Shown piece after piece: positions 1 through 18,602 of a DNA stretch of 32,000 bases. The DNA is from Polynucleobacter sp. AP-Nino-20-G2 (GTDB lineage: Bacteria; Pseudomonadota; Gammaproteobacteria; Burkholderiales; Burkholderiaceae). Both the position numbers and the translations under genes were made by a program. Within the stretch, counting starts at the first letter, position 1. Each line of letters begins with the position of its first letter. Location: positions 1,570,538 to 1,602,537 of the forward strand of contig NZ_CP061313.1 in NCBI RefSeq assembly GCF_018688235.1, read 5' to 3'. The notes beneath the pieces were generated by a model. That model saw only the letters and a list, made by a program, of their open reading frames with translations, had not been told where the DNA came from and searched no databases.

Positions 1-315
1 TAAGATATCTTGAGCTTCTTTGGGTGCATTTACCCAATATCGGGCAGGATCCTTGTCCCAAGCCTTGATATCCACAGTTACTACAAATAATAGAGATCCA
101 TCAGTAACTTGAGCCTGATCATGAGCAGCTTCTCGTAATTTTGCCCTTAAAGCCTTGTCTGTAACATTCACCAAACGCCAGTGTTGGATATTGAATGAGG
201 ATGGCGCCTGCATAGCAAGGTCAAGCAACTGCTCTGTCTCTTGCTTAGTAAATTCATGGCTTGGGTCAAAATACTTAACGGCCCTACGTTCGTGGATTGC
301 ATCAAATGTATTCAT
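1..315 (-). CDS. nitroreductase family protein, N-terminal part (gene runs off the left edge)
   Basis: Absent from the ORF track because it has no stop in the window. My minus-strand translation from the ATG at 315..313 is MNTFDAIHERRAVKYFDPSHEFTKQETEQLLDLAMQAPSSFNIQHWRLVNVTDKALRAKLREAAHDQAQVTDGSLLFVV... and stays open to position 1. A GAGGA Shine-Dalgarno lies a few nt upstream. The RRAVKYF and PSSFNIQHW motifs are typical of the nitroreductase fold. Confidence 0.6.
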   Translation of the reverse strand, partial: MNTFDAIHERRAVKYFDPSHEFTKQETEQLLDLAMQAPSSFNIQHWRLVNVTDKALRAKLREAAHDQAQVTDGSLLFVVTVDIKAWDKDPARYWVNAPKEAQDIL

Positions 316-360
316 TAACTTCCTCAGTGAGATTCAAGCTCTGATAATACGGCAATATTC

Positions 361-403
361 AAAAGACAAAACCCTCACCGTTGCTGATGAGGGTTTGCTT
401 TTC
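361..403 (-). terminator. rho-independent terminator following the tRNA
   Basis: Hairpin AAACCCTCA-N10-TGAGGGTTT (369..396). On the minus strand it starts just after the tRNA CCA end and is followed by TTTTGTCTTTT. Confidence 0.55.
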
Positions 404-703
404 TGGTGGGCCCACCAGGACTTGAACCTGGGACCAAAGGATTCCGGTTTGTGTAGCTTTCACTACTCCCTGGACTATGCCTTCATCATATTCAAACTTA
501 ACATCTGAACTTAGATGGGTGCCGTCTAGTCTCTACACCTTCAACAGCACTTTCACGCTGAAGCTTGGCTCGGCGTTAGCTTGTGCAGCTTTTGGCTGCA
601 TTTAGCTTTCTCCGAATTTGACACCATCCCTTATGCAGTTTCCACGCATAAGGCACAACTTTCGCTATAAGTCCTCTGCTCTAACCAACTGAGCTATGGG
701 CCC
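404..703 (-). tRNA. tRNA-Ile-like gene (ileX/tRNA-Ile2-type body, genomic anticodon TAT) split by a group I intron; exons 703..667 and 443..404
   Basis: The minus strand reads GGGCCCATAGCTCAGTTGGTTAGAGCAGAGGACTTAT (703->667) and AATCCTTTGGTCCCAGGTTCAAGTCCTGGTGGGCCCACCA (443->404). Joined, they fold as a 77-nt cloverleaf: acceptor GGGCCCA/TGGGCCC, D stem GCTC/GAGC, anticodon stem GAGGA/TCCTT, 5-nt variable loop, T stem CCAGG/CCTGG, T loop TTCAAGT, encoded CCA. The anticodon loop is CT-TAT-AA. Confidence 0.8.
444..666 (-). ncRNA. group I self-splicing intron (IC3-like, Azoarcus tRNA-Ile intron type) in the anticodon loop
   Basis: This is 223 nt between the two exons with no ORF. The minus strand contains GTGCCTTATGCGTGGAAACTGCATAAGGGATGGTGTCAAATTCGG...GCCGAGCCAAGCTTCAGCG...GAAGGTGTAGAGACTAGACGGCACCCATCTAAG. 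From memory this is almost colinear with the Azoarcus pre-tRNA-Ile ribozyme core GUGCCUUGCGCCGGGAAACCACGCAAGGGAUGGUGUCAAAUUCGG...GCCGAGCCAAGCUUCGG...GAAGGUGUAGAGACUAGACGGCACCCACCUAAG, with compensatory changes in P2. The intron ends in G directly before the 3' exon, and a GTG guide can pair with the exon TAT. Confidence 0.8.
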
Positions 704-715
704 TAAAACTTTACG

Positions 716-820
716 TTTACTACACACCTTGCTGCTGGTGTTTTTTACTACAAAACCACATAAAAACCACATTTACTACACACCATGAAAAATGCCCTGG
801 TGTGTAAGCGGTGTGTAAGC
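716..820. repeat. cluster of five short motif copies (TTTACTACACACC x3 in one orientation, GGTGTGTAAGC x2 inverted) just upstream of the tRNA
   Basis: TTTACTACACACC occurs at 716..728 and 772..784, and TTTACTACAAAACC at 744..757. Tandem GGTGTGTAAGC occurs at 799..809 and 810..820, which is close to the reverse complement of the first motif. Related copies lie at 962..973, 3062..3086, about 3243..3262 and 18421..18442. Confidence 0.6.
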
Positions 821-897
821 AATTTTGACCACCTAATTCACCACTAAGCTCTTGAATCTATTGAGGTCTTTGTTACAAGACCCCTAGGGCTTCTTTC

Positions 898-1139
898 TTA
901 TGAGAGCAGAAGCCCATAATAGAGCCATATAAACAGGGGCTCTGCGGGTGGTCAGTGTCGATGTGTAAGTAAATGTGTGAGCAAATTCACGCATTTACTA
1001 GAAGAGCTCTCGGACTCTTTGGTCTTCAAAACCACAGGAATTTTGGAACAACCATCTAGCACCTCGTTGCTCCAAAGTACTTTCTAGAGGAATAAGCGTT
1101 ACTTTGAGTAACGCTTATGTAGCGAGGGGCAACTACCGA
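898..1139. repeat. ~240-bp repeat unit, copy 1 (starts with the junction motif TTATGAGAGCAGA, ends ...GCGAGGGGCAACTACCGA)
   Basis: Hand alignment with 3170..3419. The shared TTATGAGAGCAGA start is followed by a diverged middle. The last ~125 nt are well conserved (CTCTTTGGTCTTCAAAACCA...GTTGCTCC...ATAAGCGTTACTTTGAGTAACGCTTAT..GCGAGGGGCA). Confidence 0.6.
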
Positions 1140-1161
1140 CCCACAGCAGCCACACATTTAT

Positions 1162-1186
1162 AAAAAACCCGCCGAAGCGGGCTTTA
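1162..1186 (-). terminator. rho-independent terminator of the autotransporter gene
   Basis: The minus strand reads AAGCCCGC-TTCG-GCGGGTTTTTT about 25 nt after the stop codon. Confidence 0.6.
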
Positions 1187-1208
1187 TTAAAGACTATTAA
1201 TCAAGTGC

Positions 1209-2627
1209 TTACAGACCAACTGTGTACGTAGCCATCACAGTAGTTGTAGAAACAGCCTGATACGGCTCTTGACGATAAATGCCGGTCACACCTAAGCGTT
1301 GATTCTTTGCCACATCGTAAGTAGCCCCAACCATTGCTGTTGGGCGAGTCTTAACGGGGTTAGCGTTAAAGTTCACCGGGCTTAACCCAGCAACACCAGT
1401 TGCAGATACAGCACCATTAGCGGTATTGGTATCAGTCTCTACCCCAGCACTGGCAAAAAGATTGGTTTGAGGGATACCTCTATAGCTAGCCCCTACGCCT
1501 GCTAAAGCAGTAGTGGCATTGGTATTGAGTGCTGAGTAAGTCAACGGCGCTGTGACTGTTGCAGAAGTACCTTCTGTATAGCCACCCATATTGTTTTGGG
1601 TATAGCGAACACCGGCATATGGAGAAACAATCACGCTCTGTGCAACCCCAAATCCATACTTAACTACCGCTTGAGCGCCTTGGCTATTTAACTGGGATGA
1701 GCCTGAACCAGCTTCGGATGTCCCAACCACTTGGCGGTTAATCGTAGTGTTCTTTTGACCATAGGCCAAGGAGACCTTTACCTCAGCGCCAGCACCATCT
1801 AAACGTTCATTCCAAGCACCAAACAGGCCAATGAGTGGCGTGTTATTTCCGAGGTTTACGGTAGAGCCTGCATTATTGACTGAGAGGTTCTGGTCTACAT
1901 ACGCGCCTACACGATAATTAATGTGTGGGCGATAAGCAGCAATGAGAAGACCGCTGGTGTTATTCAAGCCGTTAGCCGCTGAGACTGCCGTATTTCGACC
2001 ACCAGCAGATACGCAAACATTATTCTTATCAAATAAGGCGCAATCGTAGGCAAAGCTGTTAGCTAGAACTGAGTTCTGCAGTGTGTAGATATTTTGCAAA
2101 GATGATGCAGTGTTGACAAGGGAAGTTTGGGTGTCCGCAGCAGAGGGACCCTCAACAAGGTAAGTCACCGATAAATTCTCCCAGCTTGGTTCTCCACCAC
2201 CGGGGATGGTGCCAATATAAAAGAAAATGTTTGGGTTTGCCGTAGTGGTAGTAAGACGAATACTAAAGTTTGTAGAAGTATTTAAAGCGCTTCCAGTCAA
2301 TGAGGTGGTTGCACTATCCCCCAACTTAATAGACATTGTGTTTGAGAGGCTATAACTAAAATTGTAAGCACCTGAGACGGCGTAGGTTCCAGCTGAACCC
2401 GTAATGGACTGACTAAGCGAACCAGTCCCCGTATTCTGATAAGCATAAAATACACCACTCGAAGCATAGGCTGACAGTAAATTAGTTATTGTCCAGCCAG
2501 ATGTGCTATCCCCAGTAAAGGTTGGATTAACTAGCAAATTAGCTTGAGAATAGGCATTCGTCACTAATAAGCTGCCAGAAATTAAAGTCAGAAAGAAAGC
2601 AATTTTGATTTTTTTTAAGAGGCACAT
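1209..2627 (-). CDS. autotransporter outer-membrane protein (signal peptide, ~170-aa passenger, beta-barrel translocator)
   Basis: The N-terminus MCLLKKIKIAFFLTLISGSLLVTNAYSQ is a signal peptide. The segment TLQNSVLANSFAYDCALFDKNNVCVSAGGR is typical of an autotransporter linker. The C-terminal ~270 aa has the alternating beta-strand pattern of an autotransporter barrel (YAGVRYTQ.., GIYRQEPYQ..TTVMATYTVGL). Confidence 0.6.
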   Translation of the reverse strand: MCLLKKIKIAFFLTLISGSLLVTNAYSQANLLVNPTFTGDSTSGWTITNLLSAYASSGVFYAYQNTGTGSLSQSITGSAGTYAVSGAYNFSYSLSNTMSIKLGDSATTSLTGSALNTSTNFSIRLTTTTANPNIFFYIGTIPGGGEPSWENLSVTYLVEGPSAADTQTSLVNTASSLQNIYTLQNSVLANSFAYDCALFDKNNVCVSAGGRNTAVSAANGLNNTSGLLIAAYRPHINYRVGAYVDQNLSVNNAGSTVNLGNNTPLIGLFGAWNERLDGAGAEVKVSLAYGQKNTTINRQVVGTSEAGSGSSQLNSQGAQAVVKYGFGVAQSVIVSPYAGVRYTQNNMGGYTEGTSATVTAPLTYSALNTNATTALAGVGASYRGIPQTNLFASAGVETDTNTANGAVSATGVAGLSPVNFNANPVKTRPTAMVGATYDVAKNQRLGVTGIYRQEPYQAVSTTTVMATYTVGL

Positions 2628-3089
2628 GGCTACGTGAGGATAAGTGTTGGCTGTAGAGCTAATATTTTAAAAAACCGATTATGCCTCCAATCTATGACTA
2701 ACCTACTAGATTGCGCTTAATAATTTGTTGAGACAAGAGTCTGCGACAATAAAACCCCATTCACCAACCCCGCCCCAATACCCCTTACTTAGACTTACAA
2801 AATAAAAATCGGGTTATGTTCGCTTTGTTTGGAGCTTCTGTCCAAATCTTTCCAAGTAAAACTAAAGATTTAGACAAGATTGAAGTTACTTGCGTTGAAA
2901 TGGAAGCGCTTACACAGTGCAAGTCACCCTCCTAACAATTTACGACATACGTAATGTCGCTTACTGGCCGAAAGCAGCCCTTGAGCACTTGCAAACCAAG
3001 GGCAACAAATAGTTCATTGCTCCAAGCTAGAGCCATATATCTATTGGGGTCTAGCGGTGATATTTGCTACACACCGACTACACATTAAA

Positions 3090-3120
3090 GAAAAACGACT
3101 TAGGAATTTCTCCCTAAGTC
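3090..3120 (-). terminator. terminator-like hairpin directly downstream of the orphan tRNA 3' fragment
   Basis: GACTTAGG-N8-CCTAAGTC (3097..3120), followed on the minus strand by GTTTTT. Confidence 0.45.
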
Positions 3121-3131
3121 GCTAATTTCAT

Positions 3132-3171
3132 TGGTAGGCCCACCAGGACTTGAACCTGGGACCAAAGGATT
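3132..3171 (-). repeat. orphan duplicate of the tRNA 3' exon (att-type direct repeat)
   Basis: TGGTAGGCCCACCAGGACTTGAACCTGGGACCAAAGGATT matches 404..443 at 39 of 40 positions. Identity stops exactly at the exon/intron boundary of the intact gene. Confidence 0.85.
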
Positions 3172-3419
3172 ATGAGAGCAGATACCCAAAGAAAACCATT
3201 AGGATTTCAAGAGGTTACGTTGTCTGGTTATCGGTGTGTGAGTATTTGTGTGACTAGATTAACTAGATCATAAGGAGTAATGCCTCACTCTTTGGTTTTC
3301 AAAACCAATGAATATTTGGAGCAACCATTTCACACTTCGTTGCTCCACAGTGCCTTTTGAGAGATTTATAAGCGTTACTTAAAGTAACGCTTATATAGCG
3401 AGGGGCAGCTAACGATTCG
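3170..3419. repeat. ~240-bp repeat unit, copy 2
   Basis: The unit starts with TTATGAGAGCAGA. Positions 3170..3220 also match 18552..18602 (about 45/51 by hand). It contains three palindromes: TTGGTTTTCAAAACCAA (3292..3308), GGAGCAAC-N13-GTTGCTCC (3318..3346) and TATAAGCGTTACT-TAA-AGTAACGCTTATA (3367..3395). Confidence 0.6.
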
Positions 3420-4075
3420 TAGCTGCCGCCCAAAGAAAAACCACCCGTAATGGTTGCCCCTGATGTTGTTTGTGTTTCGTTTTTATTATTTAAAGTATAG
3501 ATACCGCTTGCGGTAAACCCAGCAATTGAATCGGTTTTAAATGACAATGTATTTGCCGTGCGAGCTGTAAAACCAATGTAGCTAGTTCCAGCGCTTGCAC
3601 TCGCAATTCCCTGCGCACTTGCGTATATGACGTTACCAGTCAGGTTGTTAAAGTTACCTGGATCCGTTGCTAACCCTGCGTTAAAAATTGGCGTGTATTG
3701 CAAACCAAGTGCCGCTTGTCCAATACCATTCTTTTTTAGACCAACGAATGACTGTCGATTAAATAAGCCATTATTTGCATTGCCACCTAAGTTTGCATCT
3801 TGAGGATAAATTTGAAATTCTGTTGTGAAAAATGCGGATGATCCACCACCCAAGTCTTCAATTCCTTTTAGACCAATACGACTAGAGCTCTCTGCATTCT
3901 GACCAAATTGACTTACTGTTGTCTTTGTTTCTGCGCCTGTTGTGGGGCTGACTACTCTTGAGTTGCCGCCTACATAACCCGCATCAATAATTCCATACAC
4001 CGTTACACTTGATTGTGCTTGTACGCCGCTTGCACAAACAGCTGCTAAGCCCGCCGCTGTAATAATCTTTTTCAT
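3299..4075 (-). pseudogene. Gram-negative general porin (Burkholderiales OmpC-like), 3'-truncated by the repeat unit
   Basis: The N-terminus MKKIITAAGLAAVCASGVQAQSSVTVYGIIDAGYVG... is a classic porin start. Porin-like sequence stops near aa ~215, where the reading frame runs into repeat unit 2 (about 3419). The normal C-terminal third is missing. Confidence 0.6.
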
Positions 4076-4282
4076 TTCCTATTTCCTTTACCTTTTAACT
4101 TTCAATTAATTTTGGTGACCCGAATGCAAAACCTGCAATCGAAGCCAGTCTAGGTAAAGAACTGCATGATGTCTAATGCATTTTAATGACACTTAATATA
4201 ATTAAATGTAATACATTGCTATAGTGAAGTAGATAAATGAATTCACAATTAATTTCTAAACTTTTGGACGAAAATTTGTAGC

Positions 4283-4320
4283 AAAAAAAATGCCAACAAA
4301 GGCTCAAGCTCTGTTGGCAT
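4283..4320 (-). terminator. rho-independent terminator closing the catabolic operon
   Basis: The minus strand reads ATGCCAACA-N13-TGTTGGCAT followed by TTTTTTTT, 29 nt after the Bug gene stop. Confidence 0.6.
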
Positions 4321-4348
4321 TCAGAATGAAAATGTGGGTAGCTAGATC

Positions 4349-5344
4349 TTAATCAGCCTTAATTTGATTTACTGAAATAACCTTTCCCCAGCGTTCAATT
4401 TCTTTATTTAGATAAACCCCCAGCTCTTCTGGCGATGATCCTATAGGTTCAGCACCAATACTTTCAAACTTATCCTTAATGGCAAGAGTATTCATACTGG
4501 CTACCAAGGCTACATTCAACTTCTTAATAATAGGCTTTGGAGTATTCGCTGGCACAAAAACTGCAAACCAAGGCGTGACATCATATCCTGGTAACCCAGA
4601 CTCAGCAATGGTTGGTATGCCTGGCAAGGCCTTAGAGCGCTTGATTGTCGTTAAACCGATTGGCCTTAGCTTTCCAGAAAGAATATGAGGCTTTGCAGAA
4701 GTGATGCTGTCAAACATGTAATTCACTTGACCGCCAAGTAAGTCAGTCACTGCTGGGCCGCTACCCTTATAAGGAATATGTTGCATATCTATTTTCGCTA
4801 ACGACGTAAATACCTCTCCAGCCAAATGAATAGAAGTGCCGTTACCTGCTGACGCATAGGTAATCCTTCCAGGCTGCGCCTTTGCATTTGCTATCACATC
4901 CGCAACTGTTTTTACGTTAGGCTGGGTAGCATTAGTAACCAATACATTAGGCACAATAGCAATGAGACTAACGGGCGCAAAATCCTTTATCGGGTCATAG
5001 CTTAATTTTGGATATAAAAACTTATTGGTAGCCATGCCAATTGAAGTAATCATCATTGTGTAACCATCAGCTTCAGAACGAGCTACTAATTCCGCTCCAA
5101 TATTCCCGCCTGCACCGGGCTTATTTTCGACAAAGATTGTCTGACCCAAAGATTTGGAGGAGCTATCTGCAAGTGCGCGTGCAATCACATCCATTGCCCC
5201 GCCGGGCGGAAAAGGAACAATCCATTTAATTGGCTTAGTGGGCCATTCCTGTGCATTAGCCATACTGAAGTACAGGAATATTGCAGCAATTCCAATGCCC
5301 TTTCCTATCCAGGATGGCTTCCGTTTATTTCCCATCATGCCCAC
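4349..5344 (-). CDS. Bug-family (TctC-like) tripartite tricarboxylate transporter substrate-binding protein
   Basis: A signal peptide is followed by QEWPTKPIKWIVPFPPGGAMDVIAR, the hallmark N-terminus of the Bug family. At 331 aa it has the typical size. Confidence 0.8.
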   Translation of the reverse strand: MGMMGNKRKPSWIGKGIGIAAIFLYFSMANAQEWPTKPIKWIVPFPPGGAMDVIARALADSSSKSLGQTIFVENKPGAGGNIGAELVARSEADGYTMMITSIGMATNKFLYPKLSYDPIKDFAPVSLIAIVPNVLVTNATQPNVKTVADVIANAKAQPGRITYASAGNGTSIHLAGEVFTSLAKIDMQHIPYKGSGPAVTDLLGGQVNYMFDSITSAKPHILSGKLRPIGLTTIKRSKALPGIPTIAESGLPGYDVTPWFAVFVPANTPKPIIKKLNVALVASMNTLAIKDKFESIGAEPIGSSPEELGVYLNKEIERWGKVISVNQIKAD

Positions 5345-6635
5345 TTTTCCCTGCTAATGAGATTGCAATACATGCAATTGCGCCTGGAATTGCGAATGCA
5401 TAGAAGTTAAATTCCAATGGCAAACCCAAGCTTAACAAAGTACCGCCTAGCACTGGACCTAAAATAGCGCCCACACGACCAATGCCAGAGGCCCAACCAA
5501 TACCAGTGGAACGAATTTTTAATGGGTAGTATTGCGCAACATAGGCATAGAGCAAGATTTGAGAGCCAATTGTGGTTGCGCCTGCAATAGCTACCAATAG
5601 ATTTAAAACAATGAATGGACTCTTAACACCTAAGAGACTAATTGAAGCGGCAGCGCAAATAAAGAAAATGGTAAGTACCTTGCGTGGATGGAACTTATCG
5701 GCAAGCCAACCACCTCCAACCGCTCCAAAGATAGCGCCAATGTTTAGCACCATCAAGAACATTAGGCTTGAACCCATCTCATACCCAGCTTTGTTCATTA
5801 GCTTTGGAAGCCAAGATCCCAACGCATAAACCATTAATAGGCACATAAAGAATGAAGTCCAGAACATTAAAGTACTTAATACGCGACCATCTTTAAAGAG
5901 CGAAACCAAAGGTACAGAGCTAGAGGCTTTACCTAATGGATAGATATATTCATTAGAAAGCAATGTGCCGCGCTCTGGGGCGATTTTTTTTAATATTTTT
6001 CCAGCATCAGAGTTCCGATTTGATTTAATCAAAAATCCAGGTGACTCAGGCAGATAGTAAAGAATGATTGGTAGCAGCAGCAGTGGAATAATGGCAACGA
6101 AAAAAACTGAGGGCCAGCCATAGGTCGGAATTAAATAGATTCCTACGCCAGCCGATAACATACCGCCAACTGAGTAACCGCTAAACATAATCGTTACCAG
6201 CAGGCTACGAATTTTTTTAGGTGAATATTCAGTCATCAAAGCAACCACGTTAGGCATTACGCCACCAATGCCTAATCCAGCAATAAATCGACAGATACCA
6301 AACTGCGTAAGGTTTTCTGCAAAACCATTAATAAAGGTAAAGAAGCTAAACAATGTAACGCACATTGCAATAGTCTTTTTTCTCCCTATCTTGTCTGATA
6401 ACGGCCCAAAGAACATAGCTCCAAACATCATGCCAAATAATGCATAACTACCCAAAGTCCCTGCCTGCATGGGTGATAACTGCCATTCGGCCATTAATTT
6501 AGGCAAAACAACTCCATAGATGACGAGATCGTAACCATCAAAAATGATGATTAGACCGCACCAAAATAAAAGACCCCAGTGAAATTTATTAAACCTCGCT
6601 TCGTCTATTAACTTATGAACATCAATTTGACTCAT
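5325..6635 (-). CDS. MFS transporter, aromatic acid:H+ symporter family (BenK/PcaK-like)
   Basis: 436 aa with a 12-TM-like profile. The FDGYDLVIYG and GPLSDKIGRKK motifs are typical of AAHS-family MFS transporters. It sits between pcaD and the Bug gene. Confidence 0.75.
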   Translation of the reverse strand: MSQIDVHKLIDEARFNKFHWGLLFWCGLIIIFDGYDLVIYGVVLPKLMAEWQLSPMQAGTLGSYALFGMMFGAMFFGPLSDKIGRKKTIAMCVTLFSFFTFINGFAENLTQFGICRFIAGLGIGGVMPNVVALMTEYSPKKIRSLLVTIMFSGYSVGGMLSAGVGIYLIPTYGWPSVFFVAIIPLLLLPIILYYLPESPGFLIKSNRNSDAGKILKKIAPERGTLLSNEYIYPLGKASSSVPLVSLFKDGRVLSTLMFWTSFFMCLLMVYALGSWLPKLMNKAGYEMGSSLMFLMVLNIGAIFGAVGGGWLADKFHPRKVLTIFFICAAASISLLGVKSPFIVLNLLVAIAGATTIGSQILLYAYVAQYYPLKIRSTGIGWASGIGRVGAILGPVLGGTLLSLGLPLEFNFYAFAIPGAIACIAISLAGKSGHDGK

Positions 6636-6637
6636 GC

Positions 6638-7441
6638 TTATGTCTCCAATTTGTGTTTGATTTGATTTGCAAAAAATTGCTTGATTACTTGATTGAATTC
6701 AGTTTCTGCTTCAATGTTTGAAATGTGCGAAGCAGGCACCTCTTGTAGTTGAGACCCTTTAATTTGGGACTGCATATACTGAGCATCACTAATAGTGGTA
6801 ACAGGATCTTTATCCCCGCTGATAATTAATGCAGGAATATTGATTTCTGAAATCCCCCCCTTAAGATCCTCAGTAGCCAATGCCTCGCAACAACTTGCAT
6901 AACCTTCAGGGTTCATATTTTTCAAGTTAATCAGTAATTCGTTAACTGCTTTAGGGCTTGAACCATAAAACTCTGGTGTAAACCATCTCGAAGGAGCGGA
7001 TTCTGCGATAGTATTGAGACCCTCTTTTCTAGCTAAAGCCGCCCGCTCATTCCATGCCTGCTCATTACCTATTTTTGGCGCAGTATTTGCAATCACTAAC
7101 GCCTCAATTCTTTCGGGCGCATTGACCGCTAGCCATTGACCAATAAGCCCGCCCATCGAAATTCCACAGAAGAAAGCCTTATCAATACTGAGGTAATCAA
7201 GAAGACCTAAAACATCATTTGCTAGCTGTGCAATGGTGTACGGACCCTTTGGAGAATGAGTTAATCCATGACCTCTAGTGTCGTATCTGATTAAGTAGAA
7301 ATCTCTTCTTAATACTTCAAGCTGACCATCCCACATAGAATGATCTGTTCCTAAAGAGTTAGAGAAAATAATTGCTGGTTTGTGAGGATCGCCATCTGTC
7401 AAATAGAAGATGTCAATTCCGTTAATGTGCGCAATACTCAT
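6638..7441 (-). CDS. pcaD: 3-oxoadipate enol-lactonase
   Basis: Alpha/beta hydrolase of 267 aa with GISMGG nucleophile elbow and the YDTRGHG motif. It lies in the beta-ketoadipate gene context. Confidence 0.8.
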   Translation of the reverse strand: MSIAHINGIDIFYLTDGDPHKPAIIFSNSLGTDHSMWDGQLEVLRRDFYLIRYDTRGHGLTHSPKGPYTIAQLANDVLGLLDYLSIDKAFFCGISMGGLIGQWLAVNAPERIEALVIANTAPKIGNEQAWNERAALARKEGLNTIAESAPSRWFTPEFYGSSPKAVNELLINLKNMNPEGYASCCEALATEDLKGGISEINIPALIISGDKDPVTTISDAQYMQSQIKGSQLQEVPASHISNIEAETEFNQVIKQFFANQIKHKLET

Positions 7442-7449
7442 TACTACTC

Positions 7450-8658
7450 CTAAACTCGTTCAATAATCATGGCTATGCCCTGCCCAACACCAATACACAT
7501 AGTGCAAAGAGCGTATCTACCTTTAGTGCGAATCAGTTGATACATAGCTGCAGTTACTAATCGCGCACCAGATGCCCCTAGTGGATGCCCAAGAGAAATA
7601 GCGCCCCCATTTGGATTGACGTGCGCCGCGTTGTCAGGAAGACCAAGATCACGAGTAACTGCTAAAGCCTGCGATGCAAATGCCTCATTTAGCTCAACCA
7701 CATCCATCTGACTAAGCTTTAAACCTGCTTTTTCCAAAACCTTCTTCACTGCAGGCGAAGGACCAAATCCCATGATTCTTGGAGCAACGCCAGCCGCAGC
7801 CACAGCCACAACACGCGCCTTTGGAGTCAGGGAATGCTGCTTTACACCAAGCTCTGAGGCAAGAAGCAAGGCGCAAGCGCCATCATTTACGCCTGAAGCA
7901 TTGCCGGCAGTAACTGTGCCACCTTGTTTAACAATGCTTTTTAGAGAAGCTAAAGTTTCTAGGGTGGTGAGACGCGGATGCTCATCCTTAGAAAAAACAA
8001 CAGGATCGCCCTTTTTCTGCGGAATATTTACCGGAATAATTTCATCGTCAAAGATGCCTGCAGCCTGCGCCTTTGCAGTACGCTGCTGACTAGTAAACGC
8101 AAATAGATCCTGATCAGCCCTGGAAATCCTAAAGTCTTCGGCAACGTTTTCTGCTGTTTCTGGCATGGAGTCAACGCCATACTGAGCCTTCATTAAGGGA
8201 TTAATGAAGCGCCAACCAATAGTTGTATCTTCAATTTTTGCCGATCTTGAATACGCAGAGTCGGCTTTACCCATTACAAAAGGTGCCCGAGACATGCTCT
8301 CTACACCCCCCGCAATCATTAGATGGTTGCCGCCACCTTTAATTGCATTTGCAGCTATACCAATGGCATCAAGACTAGAGCCACAGAGTCTATTGATGGT
8401 GGATCCAGGCACTTCCACTGGTAGACGAGCCAACAAGCTGGCCATCCTAGCAACGTTACGATTATCTTCACCCGCCTGATTGGCGCAACCAAAAATAACG
8501 TCATCTAACATTGACCAATCAACAATATTACGCATCATGAGAGCTTGAATTGGTAATGCAGCCAAATCATCCGCCCTTAAAGTAGATAGTGACCCACCGT
8601 ACCTACCAAAAGGAGTTCTAATGGCATCACAAATATATGCATTTGAATTATTTTTCAT
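7450..8658 (-). CDS. pcaF: 3-oxoadipyl-CoA thiolase
   Basis: Thiolase of 402 aa. It has the INRLCGSS active-site Cys, GNASGVNDGA, and C-terminal CIGVGQG motifs. It is adjacent to pcaIJ. Confidence 0.85.
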   Translation of the reverse strand: MKNNSNAYICDAIRTPFGRYGGSLSTLRADDLAALPIQALMMRNIVDWSMLDDVIFGCANQAGEDNRNVARMASLLARLPVEVPGSTINRLCGSSLDAIGIAANAIKGGGNHLMIAGGVESMSRAPFVMGKADSAYSRSAKIEDTTIGWRFINPLMKAQYGVDSMPETAENVAEDFRISRADQDLFAFTSQQRTAKAQAAGIFDDEIIPVNIPQKKGDPVVFSKDEHPRLTTLETLASLKSIVKQGGTVTAGNASGVNDGACALLLASELGVKQHSLTPKARVVAVAAAGVAPRIMGFGPSPAVKKVLEKAGLKLSQMDVVELNEAFASQALAVTRDLGLPDNAAHVNPNGGAISLGHPLGASGARLVTAAMYQLIRTKGRYALCTMCIGVGQGIAMIIERV

Positions 8659-9305
8659 GATTGAGCTATAGATAAAGGTGCGTCAGTTAGTTTTTGCAGC
8701 TCGCCCAAGGTGAGCCCAGGAACCATTTCACTCACAACCAAACCGTTTGGTGTGACATCGATAACAGCAAGATCTGTATAAATGCGATTTACGCAACCCA
8801 TACCGGTAAGTGGGTATGTGCATTTTTCAACAATCTTTGCCTCACCATTCTTGGTGACATGCTCCATCGTTACAAATACATTTCTTGCGCCAATTGCTAA
8901 ATCCATTGCTCCACCTACAGCGGGAATCGCATCTGGCGAACCAGTGTGCCAATTTGCTAGATCACCATTTTGAGCAACCTGGAAAGCGCCCAATACACAG
9001 ATATCAATATGTCCACCGCGCATCATCGTGAATGAATCGCCATGATGGAAATAGGAGCCGCCCTTTAATAGGGTGATAAATTCCTTCCCCGCATTGATCA
9101 AATCAGGATCTTCGTCTCCCTTAGCTGGAGCTGGACCCATGCCAAGAACCCCATTCTCGCTTTGCAAAAATATCTCTTTATCAACATCAAGGTAATTAGC
9201 GATTTTTGTAGGCAACCCAATACCTAAATTTACGTAAGAGCCCTCCGGAATATCTTGAGCCACTCTTTGAACAATTTGCTCTCTAGTTAAACGTTGGTAT
9301 GCCAT
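8655..9305 (-). CDS. pcaJ: 3-oxoadipate CoA-transferase subunit B
   Basis: CoA-transferase family I beta subunit with SENG catalytic-Glu motif. It overlaps pcaF by 4 nt. Confidence 0.85.
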   Translation of the reverse strand: MAYQRLTREQIVQRVAQDIPEGSYVNLGIGLPTKIANYLDVDKEIFLQSENGVLGMGPAPAKGDEDPDLINAGKEFITLLKGGSYFHHGDSFTMMRGGHIDICVLGAFQVAQNGDLANWHTGSPDAIPAVGGAMDLAIGARNVFVTMEHVTKNGEAKIVEKCTYPLTGMGCVNRIYTDLAVIDVTPNGLVVSEMVPGLTLGELQKLTDAPLSIAQS

Positions 9306-9307
9306 TT

Positions 9308-9976
9308 TTATTTCCCCTTCACAGCAACAACGTGCTTTACAAAAATACCCGGTGTAACAACATGCTCGGGATCTAGATCTCCCAGAGGCACCACTTCATT
9401 TACCTGAGCGATGGTGCATTTAGCTGCGGTCGCCATAATGGGGCCAAAATTTCTAGCGCTCATTCGATAAGTAAGATTGCCCCAGCGATCACCCTTAAAT
9501 GCTTTAATGAGTGCAAAGTCGGCATAAATCGGATACTCAAGCACATAGCCTTTGCCATTAATAACTTTGCTTTCTTTGCCTTCAGCCAAGAGGGTGCCAA
9601 ATCCTGTTGGGGTATAGATAGCACCAAGACCAGCCCCTGCCGCCTGAATGCGAGCCGCTAAGTTACCTTGCGGGACTAATTCGAGTTCAATTTTTTTGGC
9701 GTAGTACAACTTATCAAACTCATAAGAGTCAGATTGCCTTGGAAAGGAGCAGATAATTTTTTTCACCTGGCCTGCTTTGAGCAAGGCGGCCAAACCGACA
9801 TCACCATTTCCAGCGTTGTTGTTTACTACTGTTAGCTCTTTGGCTCCATGCTCAATCAAAGCATCAATTAACTGCGCAGGCTGACCAGCCGTCCCAAAGC
9901 CACCAATCATGACGGTTGAGCCATCTTTGATTTGTTTTATAGCTTCATGTATTGAAGCCGATGTTTTATCAATCAT
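9308..9976 (-). CDS. pcaI: 3-oxoadipate CoA-transferase subunit A
   Basis: CoA-transferase family I alpha subunit (GGFGTAGQP...NNNAGNG), 222 aa. Confidence 0.85.
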   Translation of the reverse strand: MIDKTSASIHEAIKQIKDGSTVMIGGFGTAGQPAQLIDALIEHGAKELTVVNNNAGNGDVGLAALLKAGQVKKIICSFPRQSDSYEFDKLYYAKKIELELVPQGNLAARIQAAGAGLGAIYTPTGFGTLLAEGKESKVINGKGYVLEYPIYADFALIKAFKGDRWGNLTYRMSARNFGPIMATAAKCTIAQVNEVVPLGDLDPEHVVTPGIFVKHVVAVKGK

Positions 9977-11167
9977 TCTTTTCTTTACTCTTTAATTTCA
10001 ATAAATCTTTATCAAAAACAACATATGCAATAGATCCAATCACAATTCCCCAGAATGCTGATCCCAGACCTAAAAAAGTCATGCCAGATGCAGTTGCTAA
10101 AAATGTGATTGCGGCAGCCTCACGATGATCGGGTTCTTCTAAAGTGCTCATGAGGCTAGTGACGATTGCGCCAAGTAAAGCTAAGCCAGCCAAAAGCGCG
10201 ATGAGCTCTTTTGGAAGACTGGTAAAAATGAGAACGATTGAACCTGCTAAGGAACCGCCAATTAAAAAGAAAACGCCGCTGAAAATGCCTGCAACATATC
10301 GCTTGTTTGGATCTTCGTTAGCTTCTTTGCCTGTACATAGGGTTGCCGTAATTGCTGCAGTCGTAGTGGTAATGCCACCAAAGAATGCGGTTACCAGGGA
10401 CATGAAACTTGTAAAAGTAATAATGGGCTTAGCGGGCACGTGATAGTTCGATAACTTGAGGATTGCCATTCCCGGCAAGTATTGGCCGGTCAAACTTACT
10501 AGAACCAACGGTATTGCAAAGCTGAATGTTGATTCCCAAGTCCACACAGGAGTGATGAATGTAGGATGGGCCAAAGCTAGCCTGAAATTATCTGGATTAA
10601 CATCACCAATGAGATATGCCAGCCCGATTCCTGAAAATAAAACAACTAAGATCGCGAATTTTGGTATCAACCTTTTGAATATCAGATAAATTCCAATCAT
10701 CGATAAAGCCAAGGCAGGCATGGTTGATACAGATTTAAATATATTGATACCAAACTGAAATAGAATGCCCGCCATCATTCCGGCCGCTATTCCCTTGGGT
10801 ATATGCTTTATTAGCTTGTCAAAGGTACCCGTAATGCCAATTAATAGAATGATCATTGCGGCAGTGATATAAGAAGAAATTGCCTCATTGACCGACATAT
10901 GCGGAAATAAGGCGATTAAGAGCGCAGCGCCAGGAGCGGACCAAGCAGTAATGATCGGCATCTTGTATTTCCAACTGAGATAAATCCCGGAAATGCCACC
11001 ACCAAACGATACCGCCCATACCCAAGAAGATAGAACTTCATTAGATACCTGAGCTAGAGATGCGGCCTGAAAAAATATCAGCATCGGCCCAGCATAGGAA
11101 ATCAATACAACTAGAAATCCAGCCGTAATTGAAGAGGGTGAAATATCTTTGAAAAAGGCGCGCTTCA

Positions 11168-11168
<1 letters not shown>
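9969..11168 (-). CDS. benE: benzoate membrane transport protein (BenE family)
   Basis: A 399-aa polytopic membrane protein directly downstream of benD, with a TAATG stop/start overlap. Its N-terminus and size are typical of BenE. Confidence 0.7.
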
Positions 11169-13480
<2,312 letters not shown>

Positions 13481-13484
<4 letters not shown>

Positions 13485-14851
13485 GCGTTCACCTGCTCTT
13501 GCTCAACTGCTTTTTTCATTGTTTCAAGCCAATAGCGATGCTGAACTGTGTACAGGCCCTCATCTTCAGTTTTCAAGCCACTTAATACGGGTTTCAAGCC
13601 GATCTCTTTAGCCGCATCGTCAGCGCCTTCAATCCAATGCTCTGAACCACGACACATATCGTTCCACTCGATCGTCTTTGCAGCAAAGCCTTCCTGGCAA
13701 GCTCTAAACTCTTCCAAGTCATCTGGAGTAGCCATACCGCTCACGTTAAAGAAGTCCTCGTATTGACGAATTCTTCTAGAGCGCGCTTCTGCTGACTCGC
13801 CTTTTGGAGCAATACAGTAGATAGTGACTTCAGTTTTATCAACAGCTAATGGGCGCAGTAAGCGGATCTGTGAACCAAACTGATCCATCAAATACACGTT
13901 TGGATATAAGCAAAGATTTCTGGAGCGCTCAATCATCCAATCAGCAATTGGTTTGCCAAACTTATCGGAAAATTCCTGGTGCCTCGGGAAATTTGGCCGG
14001 TCCTGTGGATTAGCCCACTTTGTCCAGAGGAGCATATGGCCGTGATCAAATGAATAGAAGCCACCACCCTGCTTACCCCACTTGCCAGCATCCATTGCTT
14101 TGATGTTGTCTTCGCGAATTGCTTCTTGCTCTTTACGATGGTTGGTAGTTGCAGCATAGTTCCAATGAACAGCAGATACGTGATAACCATCAGCACCGTT
14201 TTCTGCCTGAAGCTTCCAATTACCGTTAAAGGTATAAGTTGAGGCGCCCTTCAATACTTCGAGTCCATCAGCAGATTGATCCACAATCATGTCAATGATC
14301 TTGGCGGCTTCACCCAAAAAGTCCTTTAAAGGGGCAACATCATTATTTAAGCTACCAAATAAGAAGCCACGATAGCTTTCAAACTTAGGCACCTTCTTGA
14401 GATCGTGTGAGCCTTCCTTGTTAAAGCACTCTGGGTAGCCGGCCTCCTCTGGATCTTTAACCTTCAAGAGCTTTCCGCTGTTATTAAATGTCCAGCCGTG
14501 GAATGGGCAAGTGAAAGTAGCCTTGTTGCCGCGCTTATGACGGCACAACTGAGCGCCACGATGGCTACAAGCATTCATCATGGCGTTCAGTTCACCCTGA
14601 CGATTACGAGAAATGAAGATTGGCTGACTACCAATATAGGTAGAGTAGTAATCATTGATGTTTGGGATTTGACTTTCGTGCGCCAAATAAATCCAATTAC
14701 CCTCAAAGATGTGCTTCATCTCTAATTCAAACAAATCTTTATCGGTAAAAGCACTACGGTGAAGACGATAGTCGCCCTTCTCCTTATCCTCAATTAAGAA
14801 TTCATCAAGGCTTTTGAGTTTTGGACTGTTATCTACATGAATTGGGATCAT
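13481..14851 (-). CDS. benA: benzoate 1,2-dioxygenase large (alpha) subunit
   Basis: Rieske motif CSHRGAQLC...CPFHGW and a mononuclear-iron catalytic domain, 456 aa. Confidence 0.9.
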
Positions 14852-14894
14852 TTTTTATCCTTTATGAATGGGATGCTGGCATCCCATATTCAAA

Positions 14895-15815
14895 TTACGC
14901 AGCTGCGCGAGTTCTCTCGACAATTCCAGAGGCAGCGGCTGGCTTCTCAATCACCATCTGAATATCGAAATCAATCGAAGCAAATGGTTTGCTTACACCC
15001 TTAGCTTTAAGTTCGGCTGCGTCATTAACGCGAACTACTGGAGGAACAAGTCCTTCACGACTTGCAAAGGCGAAGTCATCCCAGAGATATTTATCGCCAT
15101 CAATATTGATTTGAGTAGTTAACTTTCTGTGACCAGGTGCAGTTACAAAGAAATGAACGTGCGCTGGGCGTTGGCCATGACGACCCAATAAATTCAACAA
15201 AGCTTGAGTAGAACCATCCGGCGGGCAGCCATAACCATTTGGCATGATGCTTTGGAATGAATAGCGACCATTCTCATCAGTAATGATGGTGCGACGTAAA
15301 TTGAATGAAGACTGAGTCTTATCAAAGAATGAGTAACCACCCAATGTATTGGCATGCCAAACTTCTACCTTGGCATTTGGTAATGGCTTACCGTCAGCAC
15401 CAAAAACTGTACCTTGCATAAACAATGGTTCTGCTTTATCCACCTCAGAGCCATCGTCCATGCGTGCAAAGCCTTTTGACTCTGGAGCACCAGCAACATA
15501 TAAAGGACCCTCAATAGCACGTGGTGTACCGCCTGTTAGGCCAGCCTTCTCATCGGCCTCATCCGCGCGCATATCTAAGAAGCGCTCTAGACCAATGCCA
15601 GGAGCCAATAGGCCTAATTCATTACGTGCGCCAGCCTCTGAGAAATACTCTAAGCCCTTCCAGAATTCCGTTGGGGTAATGTCCAAGTCTTCAATTGCTT
15701 TGCATAGGTCAGTAACCAAGCGCAATGTAATTTCTTGAACACGCTTGTTCGCAGGAGAATCGGCTGCATCAACAATCCATTCTTTTGCTAATTTTTCAAT
15801 ATCAGTATGTTTCAT
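14895..15815 (-). CDS. catA: catechol 1,2-dioxygenase
   Basis: Intradiol dioxygenase of 306 aa with GPLYVAGAP and RPAHVHFFV motifs. Confidence 0.9.
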   Translation of the reverse strand: MKHTDIEKLAKEWIVDAADSPANKRVQEITLRLVTDLCKAIEDLDITPTEFWKGLEYFSEAGARNELGLLAPGIGLERFLDMRADEADEKAGLTGGTPRAIEGPLYVAGAPESKGFARMDDGSEVDKAEPLFMQGTVFGADGKPLPNAKVEVWHANTLGGYSFFDKTQSSFNLRRTIITDENGRYSFQSIMPNGYGCPPDGSTQALLNLLGRHGQRPAHVHFFVTAPGHRKLTTQINIDGDKYLWDDFAFASREGLVPPVVRVNDAAELKAKGVSKPFASIDFDIQMVIEKPAAASGIVERTRAAA

Positions 15816-15889
15816 TTTGTATCCTATTAATTTGTATGTGTGTAATTAAGTTCGCTACCAACTGCATATCTGTGAAATTTTTCAAATAA

Positions 15890-16180
15890 TTAACTGTCGT
15901 CCCCCCTTACGGAAGATGGATGTCTGCACAAAGGCATTACTTCAATTTGCATGTATGGGAAGAGTGGAAGTGTCGAAATAGCTGTATGCAATTCCTCTAC
16001 GCTCGCAACATCAAATACGCTAATGTTTGCGTACTGGCCAGCGATGCGCCAGAGATGACGCCACTTGCCAGAGCTTTGCAATCCTTGCGCAATTTCTTTT
16101 TCTTTCTTTTTCAATGCCGCTGCCTCAGCCTCTGGCATTGAAGTGGGTAAATTCACATTCATTCTTACGTGGAATAACAT
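15890..16180 (-). CDS. catC: muconolactone delta-isomerase
   Basis: 96 aa: MLFHVRMNVNLP...GKWRHLWRIAG...LPLFPYMQIEVMPLCRHPSS, the canonical CatC pattern. Confidence 0.9.
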   Translation of the reverse strand: MLFHVRMNVNLPTSMPEAEAAALKKKEKEIAQGLQSSGKWRHLWRIAGQYANISVFDVASVEELHTAISTLPLFPYMQIEVMPLCRHPSSVRGDDS

Positions 16181-16191
16181 GTTGTCTCCTT

Positions 16192-17337
16192 TTATGCAGG
16201 TATCAAATCAACTTGGTCTGAATGACCTTGCTGACGTTTTAAATAATTAATTTTTTCAATGTCTAGCCGAATGCCAAGACCAGGACCTTTAGGAACCTGT
16301 AGAGAAAAATCCTTGTAAACCAATGGCTCAGTCAGAATTTCTTCAGTAAGTAATAGCGGTCCGAATAATTCGGTTCCAAATGCTAAGTCGCTGAAAGTAG
16401 AAAACACATGGGCAGAGGCTGCTGTACCAACTGCACCTTCAAGCATGGTGCCGCCATACAAACTAATGCCACTAAGTTCTGCAATGGTTGCTACCTGAAG
16501 CGCTGGGAAGAGACCGCCTGACTGATTGATCTTGACGGCAAAAACATCGGCTGCAAATTTATTTGCTAGTTCCAATGCATCAAAAGGACCATGCAATGCT
16601 TCATCGGCCATGATGGCAACATCAAACTGATTAGTCAGGCGAGCCATGCTTGCTTTATATGAAGCTTTGACAGGCTGCTCAATTAAATCAATTCCACCTG
16701 CCTGAAGTGAAGCTATACCTTTAACAGCATCTAATTCACTCCATGCCTGGTTCACATCTACACGCACACTGATATCAGAGCCTAATGCACGTTTAATTGC
16801 GAGTACGTGTTCTACATCCGCTTCAACAGAGCGCAAGCCAATTTTCAATTTGAAAATATTGTGTCTGCGCAGTGAAATCATCTTCTCCGCTTCGGCAATA
16901 TCTTTTTTGGTATCTCCACTTGCTAATGTCCATGCAACTGGAAGCTCATCCCGAACGCGGCCGCCTAGCAATTCACTAACCGGAACACCAAGGCGCTTAC
17001 CTTGAGCATCAAGCAATGCAGTCTCGATTGCGCACTTAGCAAAACGATTACCTTGTATAGTAGAGCGCAACTTATTCATTGCCTTGGCAACCTGATCGGC
17101 TTTCATACCAACAATCAGGGGTGCCATATAGGTATCGATATTGGTCTTGATACTTTCTGGGCTCTCTTCACCATAATTCAGACCTCCAATCGTGGTGGCC
17201 TCACCCCATCCCTCAATACCGTCATCACAAAGAATGCGCACCAAAACAAGAGCCTGGGCATTCATCGTGGCCACAGATAACTTGTGTGGGCGGATAGTCG
17301 GCACATCAACTATTAGGGTTTCTACTGATTTGATCAT
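16192..17337 (-). CDS. catB: muconate cycloisomerase
   Basis: A 381-aa enolase-superfamily protein (MR/MLE) positioned first in the operon and divergent from the LysR gene. Confidence 0.9.
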   Translation of the reverse strand: MIKSVETLIVDVPTIRPHKLSVATMNAQALVLVRILCDDGIEGWGEATTIGGLNYGEESPESIKTNIDTYMAPLIVGMKADQVAKAMNKLRSTIQGNRFAKCAIETALLDAQGKRLGVPVSELLGGRVRDELPVAWTLASGDTKKDIAEAEKMISLRRHNIFKLKIGLRSVEADVEHVLAIKRALGSDISVRVDVNQAWSELDAVKGIASLQAGGIDLIEQPVKASYKASMARLTNQFDVAIMADEALHGPFDALELANKFAADVFAVKINQSGGLFPALQVATIAELSGISLYGGTMLEGAVGTAASAHVFSTFSDLAFGTELFGPLLLTEEILTEPLVYKDFSLQVPKGPGLGIRLDIEKINYLKRQQGHSDQVDLIPA

Positions 17338-17407
17338 ATCTATTTCGTATAGTTTTTCGATAAATGAACTCTAAACAGGTCTTTTTGACGAGTCCAAGAC
17401 TGATTTG

Positions 17408-17435
17408 GTATCCTTTTGATACTTAAAAGGTATAC
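17408..17435. promoter_or_regulatory. candidate CatR/BenM operator in the catB-catR divergent region
   Basis: GTATCCTTTTGATACTTAAAAGGTATAC contains ATAC-N7-GTAT (17419..17433), the dyad reported for BenM/CatM-type regulators, plus an overlapping GTAT-N7-ATAC. It lies ~82-96 nt upstream of the catB ATG. Confidence 0.5.
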
Positions 17436-17437
17436 AT

Positions 17438-18551: not shown

Positions 18552-18602
18552 TTATGAGAGCAGACATCCAAGGTAGACCATTAGGATTTCAAGGGGTTAC
18601 GT
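18552..18602. repeat. junction motif copy 3 (TTATGAGAGCAGA plus 38 nt), candidate left boundary of the accessory island
   Basis: TTATGAGAGCAGACATCCAAGGTAGACCATTAGGATTTCAAGGGGTTACGT versus 3170..3220 TTATGAGAGCAGATACCCAAAGAAAACCATTAGGATTTCAAGAGGTTACGT. The first 13 nt also occur at 898..910. Confidence 0.7.

Follow-up and report, generated by a model that had tools for sequence, protein, structure and literature searches.

A tRNA-Ile2-family gene with a UAU anticodon, split by an Azoarcus-like group I intron, in apparently inserted DNA of Polynucleobacter

The window analysed here, a 32-kb stretch of the genome of Polynucleobacter sp. AP-Nino-20-G2 (contig NZ_CP061313.1), carries on its minus strand a tRNA gene that is split by a group I intron and reads from 703 to 404, with its 5′ end at 703 and its CCA at 406-404. 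With high confidence, this gene can be described as a secondary copy of a tRNA-Ile2-family gene bearing U at position 34, the precursor of which, about 300 nucleotides (nt) long, is interrupted between nt 36 and 37 by a 223-nt intron of the Azoarcus (IC3) type. An initial annotation of the sequence had proposed that an Azoarcus-like IC3 intron interrupts the anticodon loop of a tRNA gene, and this proposal is borne out by an Rfam match, by tRNA prediction with ARAGORN, by alignment with the Azoarcus intron and by covariation; the assignment to the minus strand, the UAU anticodon and the location within inserted DNA go beyond it.

In its default mode, ARAGORN calls no tRNA across the whole window, just as had been feared for standard tRNA finders. 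When introns are allowed, it returns a single gene, a tRNA-Ile(tat) of 77 nt including the CCA, with a 223-nt intron ('cttat-Intron-aatcc') at window 666..444. From 703 to 404, the gene reads GGGCCCATAGCTCAGTTGGTTAGAGCAGAGGACTTAT / 223 nt / AATCCTTTGGTCCCAGGTTCAAGTCCTGGTGGGCCCACCA; these boundaries are identical to those in the initial annotation, according to which removal of 444..666 leaves a 77-nt cloverleaf, and 404..703 are the exact limits of the pre-tRNA. The 5′ splice site falls after U-1 (window 667), which pairs with the G at 656 as U.G in 60/60 sequences of the alignment described below. The intron does end in G, as had been noted: this omega-G, at window 444, is invariant in the same alignment (G260), and excision exactly up to G444 gives a perfect cloverleaf. 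The 3′ exon is 100 % identical to that of most Polynucleobacter homologues.

The covariance search agrees with this reading. The Rfam family Intron_gpI (RF00028) matches 678..451(-) with 55.7 bits (E 9.7e-12; the gathering score is 50); the match is untruncated, spanning model positions 1-253 of 253, and Intron_gpI is the sole Rfam family above its gathering score in the 32 kb. A secondary structure was drafted manually on the established group I topology, comprising helices P1-P9 with the P3/P7 pseudoknot and the four tRNA arms (90 pairs in all), and was evaluated on alignment A1, which holds 60 non-redundant precursors (the window and 59 homologues). Standard pairs occupy 95.8 % of the cells on A1, a proportion that falls to 35-40 % once the 3′ partners are slid by 1-3 columns. 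Changes on both sides are found in 41 of the 90 pairs, and not one of the five measures was reached in any of 500 column shuffles. This covariation is carried by P2, P5a, P6a, P8 and P9; P3 and P7 vary little or not at all among the 60 sequences and speak neither for nor against these helices. P1 is paired in 100 % of A1, with a first pair that is C-G in 59 sequences and U.G in one, that of the window. The minimum free energy fold of the single intron sequence, with z = -3.3 relative to 200 shuffles, recovers P1, P2, P4-P5a, P8 and P9. The compensatory changes that had been recognised in P2 affect most of its pairs (Table 1), and the strings quoted for P2, the P3, J3/4, P6 and P7 blocks and the hairpins can all be located on the minus strand, P3, J3/4 and P7 being identical to their Azoarcus counterparts. 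The G-binding pair in P7 would be G531-C473.

Within the alignment, the P5a, P6a, P8 and P9 hairpins of the Polynucleobacter introns occur in a small number of distinct versions that are combined differently from copy to copy (A1 columns 105-180, 195-220, 242-281 and 299-312), which suggests recombination between copies. In one locus (L136), P5a is enlarged by an insertion of about 40 nt.

The class of tRNA-Ile2 group I introns has reportedly been known since work on Azoarcus in 1992. The published Azoarcus ribozyme template comprises 197 nt and is without the intron's initial eight nucleotides (PMC8890501). When compared with this ribozyme from the guide GUG to the last G, the window intron is identical at 148 of 190 comparable positions (78 %), and both introns contain GGGATGGTGTCAAATTCGG, GCCGAGCCAAGCTTC, GGTGTAG.GACTAGACGGCACCCA, GAAGGCATAGTC.AGGGAG and the tail ACACAAACCGG. 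The intron in pre-tRNA-Ile(CAU) from Azoarcus resides in the same tRNA family, is inserted after anticodon nt 36, has the same U-1/omega-G and the same 3-nt guide GUG, is devoid of an open reading frame (ORF) and forms helices P1-P9, with J3/4, P3, P7, J8/7 and the 3′ tail identical to those of the window. The two differ in length, the window intron having 223 nt and that of Azoarcus 205 nt, with 2 additional nt in the P1 loop, 3 in P5a, 2 in P6a and 11 in distal P8. Here the initial annotation has to be corrected, as it had located the extra length in an extended P9. The segment CATCTAAG...TATGATG (CATCTAAGTTCAGATG; in RNA, CAUCUAAG...UAUGAUG) lies between P3′ and J8/7 and corresponds to P8, the distal stem of which is 11 nt longer, while the hairpin GTAGTGAAAGCTAC is P9 at its Azoarcus length; Azoarcus also carries ...TATGGTGAAGGCATAGTCNAGGGAGNGGCGAAAGTCACACAAACCGG (PMC8890501). 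The error stemmed from a truncated version of the Azoarcus sequence. Indeed, P9 is of equal length in the two introns and differs in a compensatory manner (GUAGU-GAAA-GCUAC in the window, GNGGC-GAAA-GUCAC in Azoarcus). The receptor-like motif of P8 is UCUAAG/UAUGA in the window and CCUAAG/UAUGG in Azoarcus, and the receptor motif of P5 is GCUAAA/ACAAGC in the clade of the window and CCUAAG/UAUGG in Azoarcus. Further differences concern the anticodon (UAU, against CAU in Azoarcus) and the host, a Polynucleobacter-like member of the Burkholderiaceae with 43 % G+C; in addition, the gene, unlike that of Azoarcus, appears to sit in inserted DNA.

By these similarities, the intron belongs to an already known kind, the Azoarcus-type 'Ile2.5Ug' class, which is one of the four classical bacterial tRNA intron types in the 2017-era genome survey of Williams (10.1101/2020.01.27.920355). 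The probable assignment to subgroup IC3 likewise rests on similarity to the Azoarcus intron. The cyanobacterial and plastid tRNA-Leu(UAA) intron (Leu.3Ug) is another IC3 intron in the anticodon loop of a bacterial tRNA, with conserved P7 and J8/7 strings that resemble the Rfam model consensus, yet it interrupts another tRNA, is inserted between nt 34 and 35 and has another J3/4-P4 string. A literature search returned no paper pairing 'group I intron' with 'Polynucleobacter'.

The identity of the tRNA can be read from its exons, which are 83-84 % identical over their full length to Escherichia coli genes annotated as tRNA-Ile at the rpoD-mug-tRNA locus (ileX) and 91 % identical to a tRNA with anticodon CAT encoded downstream of rpoD in Legionella. 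The pairs C4-G69, C5-G68 and G27.U43, which we take from E. coli work to be determinants for TilS, are invariant in A1. The tRNA body is of the tRNA-Ile2 type and not that of a Met or fMet tRNA. In tRNA-Ile2, C34 is converted to lysidine by TilS. The window gene departs from such lysidine-type tRNAs in two respects: it has T34 where the TilS target C34 of the CAU anticodon is found in 59/59 aligned homologues, and it is not located downstream of rpoD, the usual position of tRNA-Ile2.

The relatives that serve for these comparisons were obtained with a two-block core pattern searched in 185,579 species genomes, which yielded at least 120 loci, and with the exon-intron junction searched in JGI metagenomes, which added 92 further loci; the RNA is conserved at the nucleotide level, with compensatory changes, in more than 150 loci. 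The closest locus among the matches listed is that of Polynucleobacter sp. 71A-WALBACH, 97 % identical over 350 nt. Phage and plasmid collections held no near relatives, giving tRNA exon matches and one 74 % core match (Agrobacterium phage Atu_ph07) only, and a scan of IMG/VR for the exon-intron junction with either anticodon returned nothing. The window reads CTTAT at the place where CTCAT is found in 45/45 alignable homologous loci among the matches listed, and the 26-mer with CAT occurs in 92 metagenome contigs, that with TAT in 0. Across the 300-nt precursor, the window deviates from the consensus shared by 90 % or more of the 59 other sequences solely at base 34 (window 669). In P1, the change from C34 to U converts the C34-G pair into U.G. 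In the complement of the Azoarcus guide, the 5′ nucleotide has been described as the least critical of the triplet (PMC2241849). Since P1 still pairs, as U.G, and since the 5′ position is the least critical one, splicing should be unaffected by U34. The spliced tRNA, with its UAU anticodon, can no longer serve as a substrate for lysidine synthesis.

The surroundings of the gene show that it does not occupy the native, rpoD-linked location. In 26 homologous loci among the matches listed, dnaG-rpoD lie upstream; upstream of the window copy are instead a module termed a2, an autotransporter gene and a truncated porin gene (Table 1). The window copy is therefore not the native rpoD-linked gene and appears to be a secondary one. 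Both an rpoD-linked copy and a copy in the arrangement of the window are found in P. sinensis (loci L007 and L120), and an rpoD-linked CAU copy, as well as tilS, is probably present in the genome of the window. Synteny with GCA_018705835.1 and GCA_018881695.1, two Polynucleobacter-type assemblies with 99.1-99.7 % identity, holds over 3441..13635 and stops at 3441/3440, inside the porin gene; the flanking benzoate/catechol/beta-ketoadipate genes are 99.1-99.7 % identical to those of the same two assemblies. There are thus near-identical genomes that are without the insertion, and window 1..3440 is inserted or rearranged DNA, the far end of which lies beyond the start of the window. The best homologue of the nitroreductase gene that follows the tRNA is 91 % identical, with no tRNA upstream on its contigs.

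Two kinds of module, a and b, accompany the gene. Copies of module a measure about 240-270 nt, and two of them lie beside the tRNA; module b follows an orphan 5′ half of the tRNA in most relatives and module a2 in the window. Rfam, searched at E<=1 over 1..3600, offers no family that would explain either, and the modules look like the att arms of an integrative element. There are three exact copies of TCTGCTCTCATAA in the window, the third of which (18552-18564) lies 4 kb from a recombinase gene on the same strand. The array 1..3440 beside the tRNA, the far end of which is outside the window, contains no integrase gene.

Table 1. Features of the intron-split tRNA gene, its ribozyme and the surrounding DNA (window coordinates).
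Feature	Position	Strand	Description
5′ exon, tRNA nt 1-36	667..703	-	Acceptor 5′ strand, D arm, anticodon-stem 5′ strand, CT and anticodon TAT (669-667); base 34 is window 669; ARAGORN
Group I intron, 223 nt	444..666	-	IC3/Azoarcus type (probable), without ORF; Rfam, Azoarcus alignment, covariation
3′ exon, tRNA nt 37-76	404..443	-	AA, anticodon-stem 3′ strand, variable loop, T arm, acceptor 3′ strand, A73, encoded CCA; ARAGORN
P1	654..669	-	Exon UAU (669-667) and intron AGC with GUU and internal guide GUG (656-654); GAAA loop; U-1.G wobble 667/656
P2 CCUUAUGC/GCAUAAGG	629..653	-	GAAA-type L2 loop; 6/8 pairs changed on both sides
P3 5′ strand	625-620	-	Hand-drawn pseudoknot
P4-P5-P5a domain	570..616	-	J4/5 AAA; 6/6 P5a pairs compensatory; 3 nt longer than in Azoarcus
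P6/P6a hairpin	537..569	-	GAAA loop; 6/6 P6a pairs compensatory
P7 5′ strand, J7/3, P3 3′ strand	518..533	-	GAGACUA (533-527, bulged A); GGCACC (523-518); identical in Azoarcus
P8	484..517	-	11-nt-type tetraloop-receptor motif UCUAAG/UAUGA; distal stem 11 nt longer than in Azoarcus; helices compensatory
J8/7 and P7 3′ strand	472..483	-	AAGGCA; UAGUCC; invariant in 60 sequences, same string in Azoarcus
P9 hairpin	453..466	-	GUAGU-GAAA-GCUAC, followed by tail ACAAACCGG; 4/5 pairs compensatory
Terminator-like hairpin and T run	369..396	-	8 nt past CCA; hairpin kept in homologous loci
Nitroreductase gene	1..315	-	After the intron-containing gene; PF00881
Module b	704..899	-	Conserved upstream spacer of about 197 nt; starts AAGAAAGAAGCCC; direct repeats GCTTACACACC x2
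Module a2	900..1140	-	About 240 nt, hairpin-rich; ends ...TCTGCTCTCAT; joined to b as attP-like a-CTCATAA-b
Autotransporter-type gene	2627-1209	-	PF03797
Orphan intron-less tRNA-Ile2 3′ half	3171-3132	-	Joined directly to a1
Module a1	3440-3172	-	Ends ...TCTGCTCTCAT; outer end 3440/3441 is the porin truncation point
Truncated porin gene	3299..4075	-	Remainder absent from window; break at 3441/3440

By homology with the Azoarcus system, the gene would be processed as follows. A precursor of about 300 nt would be transcribed from the minus strand and end at the hairpin terminator. The guide GUG would pair with the anticodon triplet to form P1, in which the U36.G wobble would mark the 5′ splice site, while the P3-P8 and P4-P6 domains would form the core around P7. 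Free GTP would then attack after U36, the terminal G (window 444) would subsequently enter the same site, and exon ligation would yield a 77-nt tRNA with an encoded CCA and a UAU anticodon.

Several points weigh against a gene of this kind being at work in the cell. Its transcription and splicing, like the charging of the product and its role in decoding, are predictions from sequence, and a consensus scan of window 1..1300 gave no sigma-70-like promoter. U34 is known from a single assembly. tRNA-Ile(UAU) is a poor substrate for the isoleucyl-tRNA synthetase (IleRS) of E. coli, and AUG can be misread by a UAU anticodon on the ribosomes of that species (PMC3575796), so that a UAU tRNA cannot be assumed to work.

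The most likely history of base 34 is a recent anticodon switch in a spare copy, since the gene appears to be a secondary copy in inserted DNA and an rpoD-linked CAU copy probably exists elsewhere in the genome. What this switch has led to can be seen in different ways. It is plausible, at somewhat less than even odds, that the change from C34 to U is a recent mutation in a redundant copy, neutral or mildly harmful, whereby splicing is kept while the product is useless or poorly charged, and that the copy is beginning to decay. The copy does lie in inserted DNA away from rpoD, the variant is seen nowhere else (neither at the 45 loci among the matches listed nor in the 92 contigs), and several complete and partial copies are found in related genomes (L007, L120 and L022), which makes redundancy plausible. 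However, there is no second defect in the 300 nt, and if some 10 differences from the closest relative were scattered at random, base 34 would be hit with a chance of about 3 % by our own estimate.

It has also to be considered, more doubtfully, that the UAU copy works and decodes AUA independently of TilS, having arisen when selection favoured a switch of the anticodon in a spare gene borne by an element. Consistent with such a decoder, the wobble base is the sole departure from a very conserved family, with no other decay, P1 is preserved as U.G, and AUA occurs at 8.3 per 1000 codons in the window genes. Selection on the TilS/tRNA-Ile2 pair has been described in a Burkholderia (10.1101/2022.10.28.514323). 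There are also precedents for UAU decoders, namely a tRNA-Ile(UAU) in Mycoplasma mobile and a U34 suppressor tRNA in Bacillus subtilis lacking tilS, both of which have a bacterial Ile-type body in which UAU replaces the lysidine-dependent CAU (PMC3575796, PMC3919564). Unlike the window gene, these tRNAs have no intron, and their charging and AUA decoding have been demonstrated; moreover, M. mobile is without tilS and has an adapted IleRS, while the B. subtilis suppressor derives from tRNA-Ile1 (G34U) and not from tRNA-Ile2. Set against a decoder are the single occurrence of the variant (0/92 metagenome contigs, 0/45 loci among the matches listed), the poor charging of UAU that may be expected of an ordinary IleRS, and possible misreading of AUG.

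An error of sequencing or assembly at T34 (A at + strand 669), which would leave an ordinary CAU tRNA-Ile2 with an intron, is rather improbable. The difference is indeed a single base, unique among all relatives, and no second assembly was found; yet the flanks are clean, the rest of the window matches other assemblies at 99.1-99.7 % identity where compared, which speaks for good quality, and a random error at exactly base 34 is unlikely a priori. Finally, next to no weight can be given to the view that the region encodes a protein and that its RNA features are coincidental: ORF 155..508(+), named in the initial annotation, exists, with 117 aa and a TTG start, but we take it to be spurious, because it is antisense to the Pfam-supported nitroreductase gene (1..315 -, PF00881, E 3e-15) and to the tRNA and its intron, and because it shares its position with an RNA that is supported by covariation and conserved in more than 150 loci.

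As to how a secondary tRNA-Ile2 gene came to lie in this DNA, the arrays found in relatives are informative. Orphan 5′ halves ending in CTCATAA directly follow rpoD in several families of Betaproteobacteria (L003 6438-6474, L054, L071, L076, L080, L009, L033, L095 and about 45 more), and no complete tRNA is called by ARAGORN at the positions of orphan halves. Among the matches listed, an orphan 5′ half lies 140-220 nt upstream of the full gene in 53 of the 80 loci with enough upstream sequence, and the hosts include Massilia, Duganella, Janthinobacterium, Gulbenkiania, Methylotenera and Sterolibacterium. The commonest arrangement in other loci is rpoD, orphan 5′ half, b and full gene; further arrangements are a-b-full gene, as in the window, a-intron-3′ exon, and a-3′ exon without intron, with extra 3′ halves 0.8-11 kb downstream in some loci. 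The junctions, whether a/b, a/T3, a/intron or T5/b, all break at CTCAT^A, which is both the anticodon loop and the intron insertion point. A plain tandem duplication was considered as the origin of the orphan 5′ half and rejected: in Duganella (L071), the orphan and the 5′ exon differ in the D loop and stems, and an incoming gene is therefore favoured. Between two orphan 5′ halves (L200, L171, L194, L159, L164), there are recombinases 49 % identical to that encoded at 22389-23027 of the window. These recombinases are short, about 200-250 aa, and score below every NCBIfam cut-off.

The organisation of these loci resembles in part that of genomic islands that insert in tRNA genes by means of tyrosine integrases with an anticodon-loop sublocation: variable DNA is flanked by incomplete copies of the tRNA, junctions are located in the 7-nt loop CTCATAA and have arm-like direct repeats beside them, and genes for tyrosine recombinases occur in some inserts. 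The differences are that the orphan by rpoD is usually a 5′ half, that a complete, intron-bearing replacement gene lies about 200 nt inside, that many cassettes are without an integrase and that the recombinases are short. A role of the a modules as IS110-type bridge RNAs or integron-like attC sites was also considered; no DEDD recombinase lies nearby, and the recombinases found are of the tyrosine type. The window gene may well be a copy brought by integrative elements for which the resident tRNA-Ile2 gene, in its anticodon loop, would be the site of recombination. On a decidedly tentative reading, such an element would recombine in the CTCATAA of the resident gene downstream of rpoD, at the intron insertion point, leaving an orphan 5′ half behind and supplying a replacement gene, in which the intron would split the att core and make the replacement a poor target. 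In the general form of this tentative reading, intron-bearing tRNA-Ile2 genes would be cargo of integrative elements in Polynucleobacter and other Betaproteobacteria, the intron, which has no homing endonuclease gene, would spread by hitch-hiking on site-specific recombination, and the spare copies so created would be places where switches such as CAU to UAU, yielding a TilS-independent decoder of AUA, can occur.

Further observations concern the neighbourhood of the gene and the distribution of related introns. The third a-end of the window, with its CTCATAA core (18552-18602(-)), adjoins the LysR regulator gene of the catechol pathway and is followed by unknown, helix-turn-helix and AAA-ATPase-like genes and then by the short tyrosine recombinase gene at 22389-23027(-) (PF00589). 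The window also contains a complete-looking aromatic catabolism cluster (4349..18352), ordinary for the group, with genes for benzoate dioxygenase, BenE, catechol 1,2-dioxygenase, muconate cycloisomerase, beta-ketoadipate CoA-transferase, thiolase, enol-lactonase, TctC-type binding proteins and a LysR regulator. Agrobacterium phage Atu_ph07 (MF403008.1, about 113 kb; L001 517-878) carries a tRNA-Leu(taa) with a 278-nt intron (ARAGORN, introns allowed); the stretch is partly annotated as hypothetical proteins, and the intron core is 74 % identical to the window intron and scores below the Rfam gathering score. Among the matches listed, the Azoarcus-like core pattern is also found in introns of Leu-CAA, Leu-TAA, Arg-TCT, Ser, Val and initiator-like CAT tRNAs (loci L004-L122), in hosts that comprise Omnitrophota, Patescibacteria (the candidate phyla radiation, CPR), Chloroflexota, Acidobacteriota, Planctomycetota and Vibrionaceae. 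A metagenomic array (L162 2042-2118) contains an uninterrupted, intron-less CAT tRNA of the tRNA-Ile2 family; intron-plus and intron-minus alleles therefore both circulate. In four loci (L159 5843-7000, L171 1592-2749, L135 7071-8228 and L213 1291-2448), a free-standing GIY-YIG protein of 385 aa is encoded about 0.8 kb downstream of the intron-bearing tRNA and matches TIGR01453 'group I intron endonuclease' with 99.7 bits (cut-off 56).

Taken by itself, the intron adds a host genus to a known class and serves as a reminder that default tRNA finders miss such genes. The set of 60 sequences, with its reassorted peripheral hairpins, represents the natural variation of a major laboratory model ribozyme, and the coincidence of the array junctions with the intron site suggests a route by which an intron without a homing endonuclease may spread. 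As for the UAU anticodon, if it is real and functional, it would provide a natural snapshot of AUA decoding escaping TilS.

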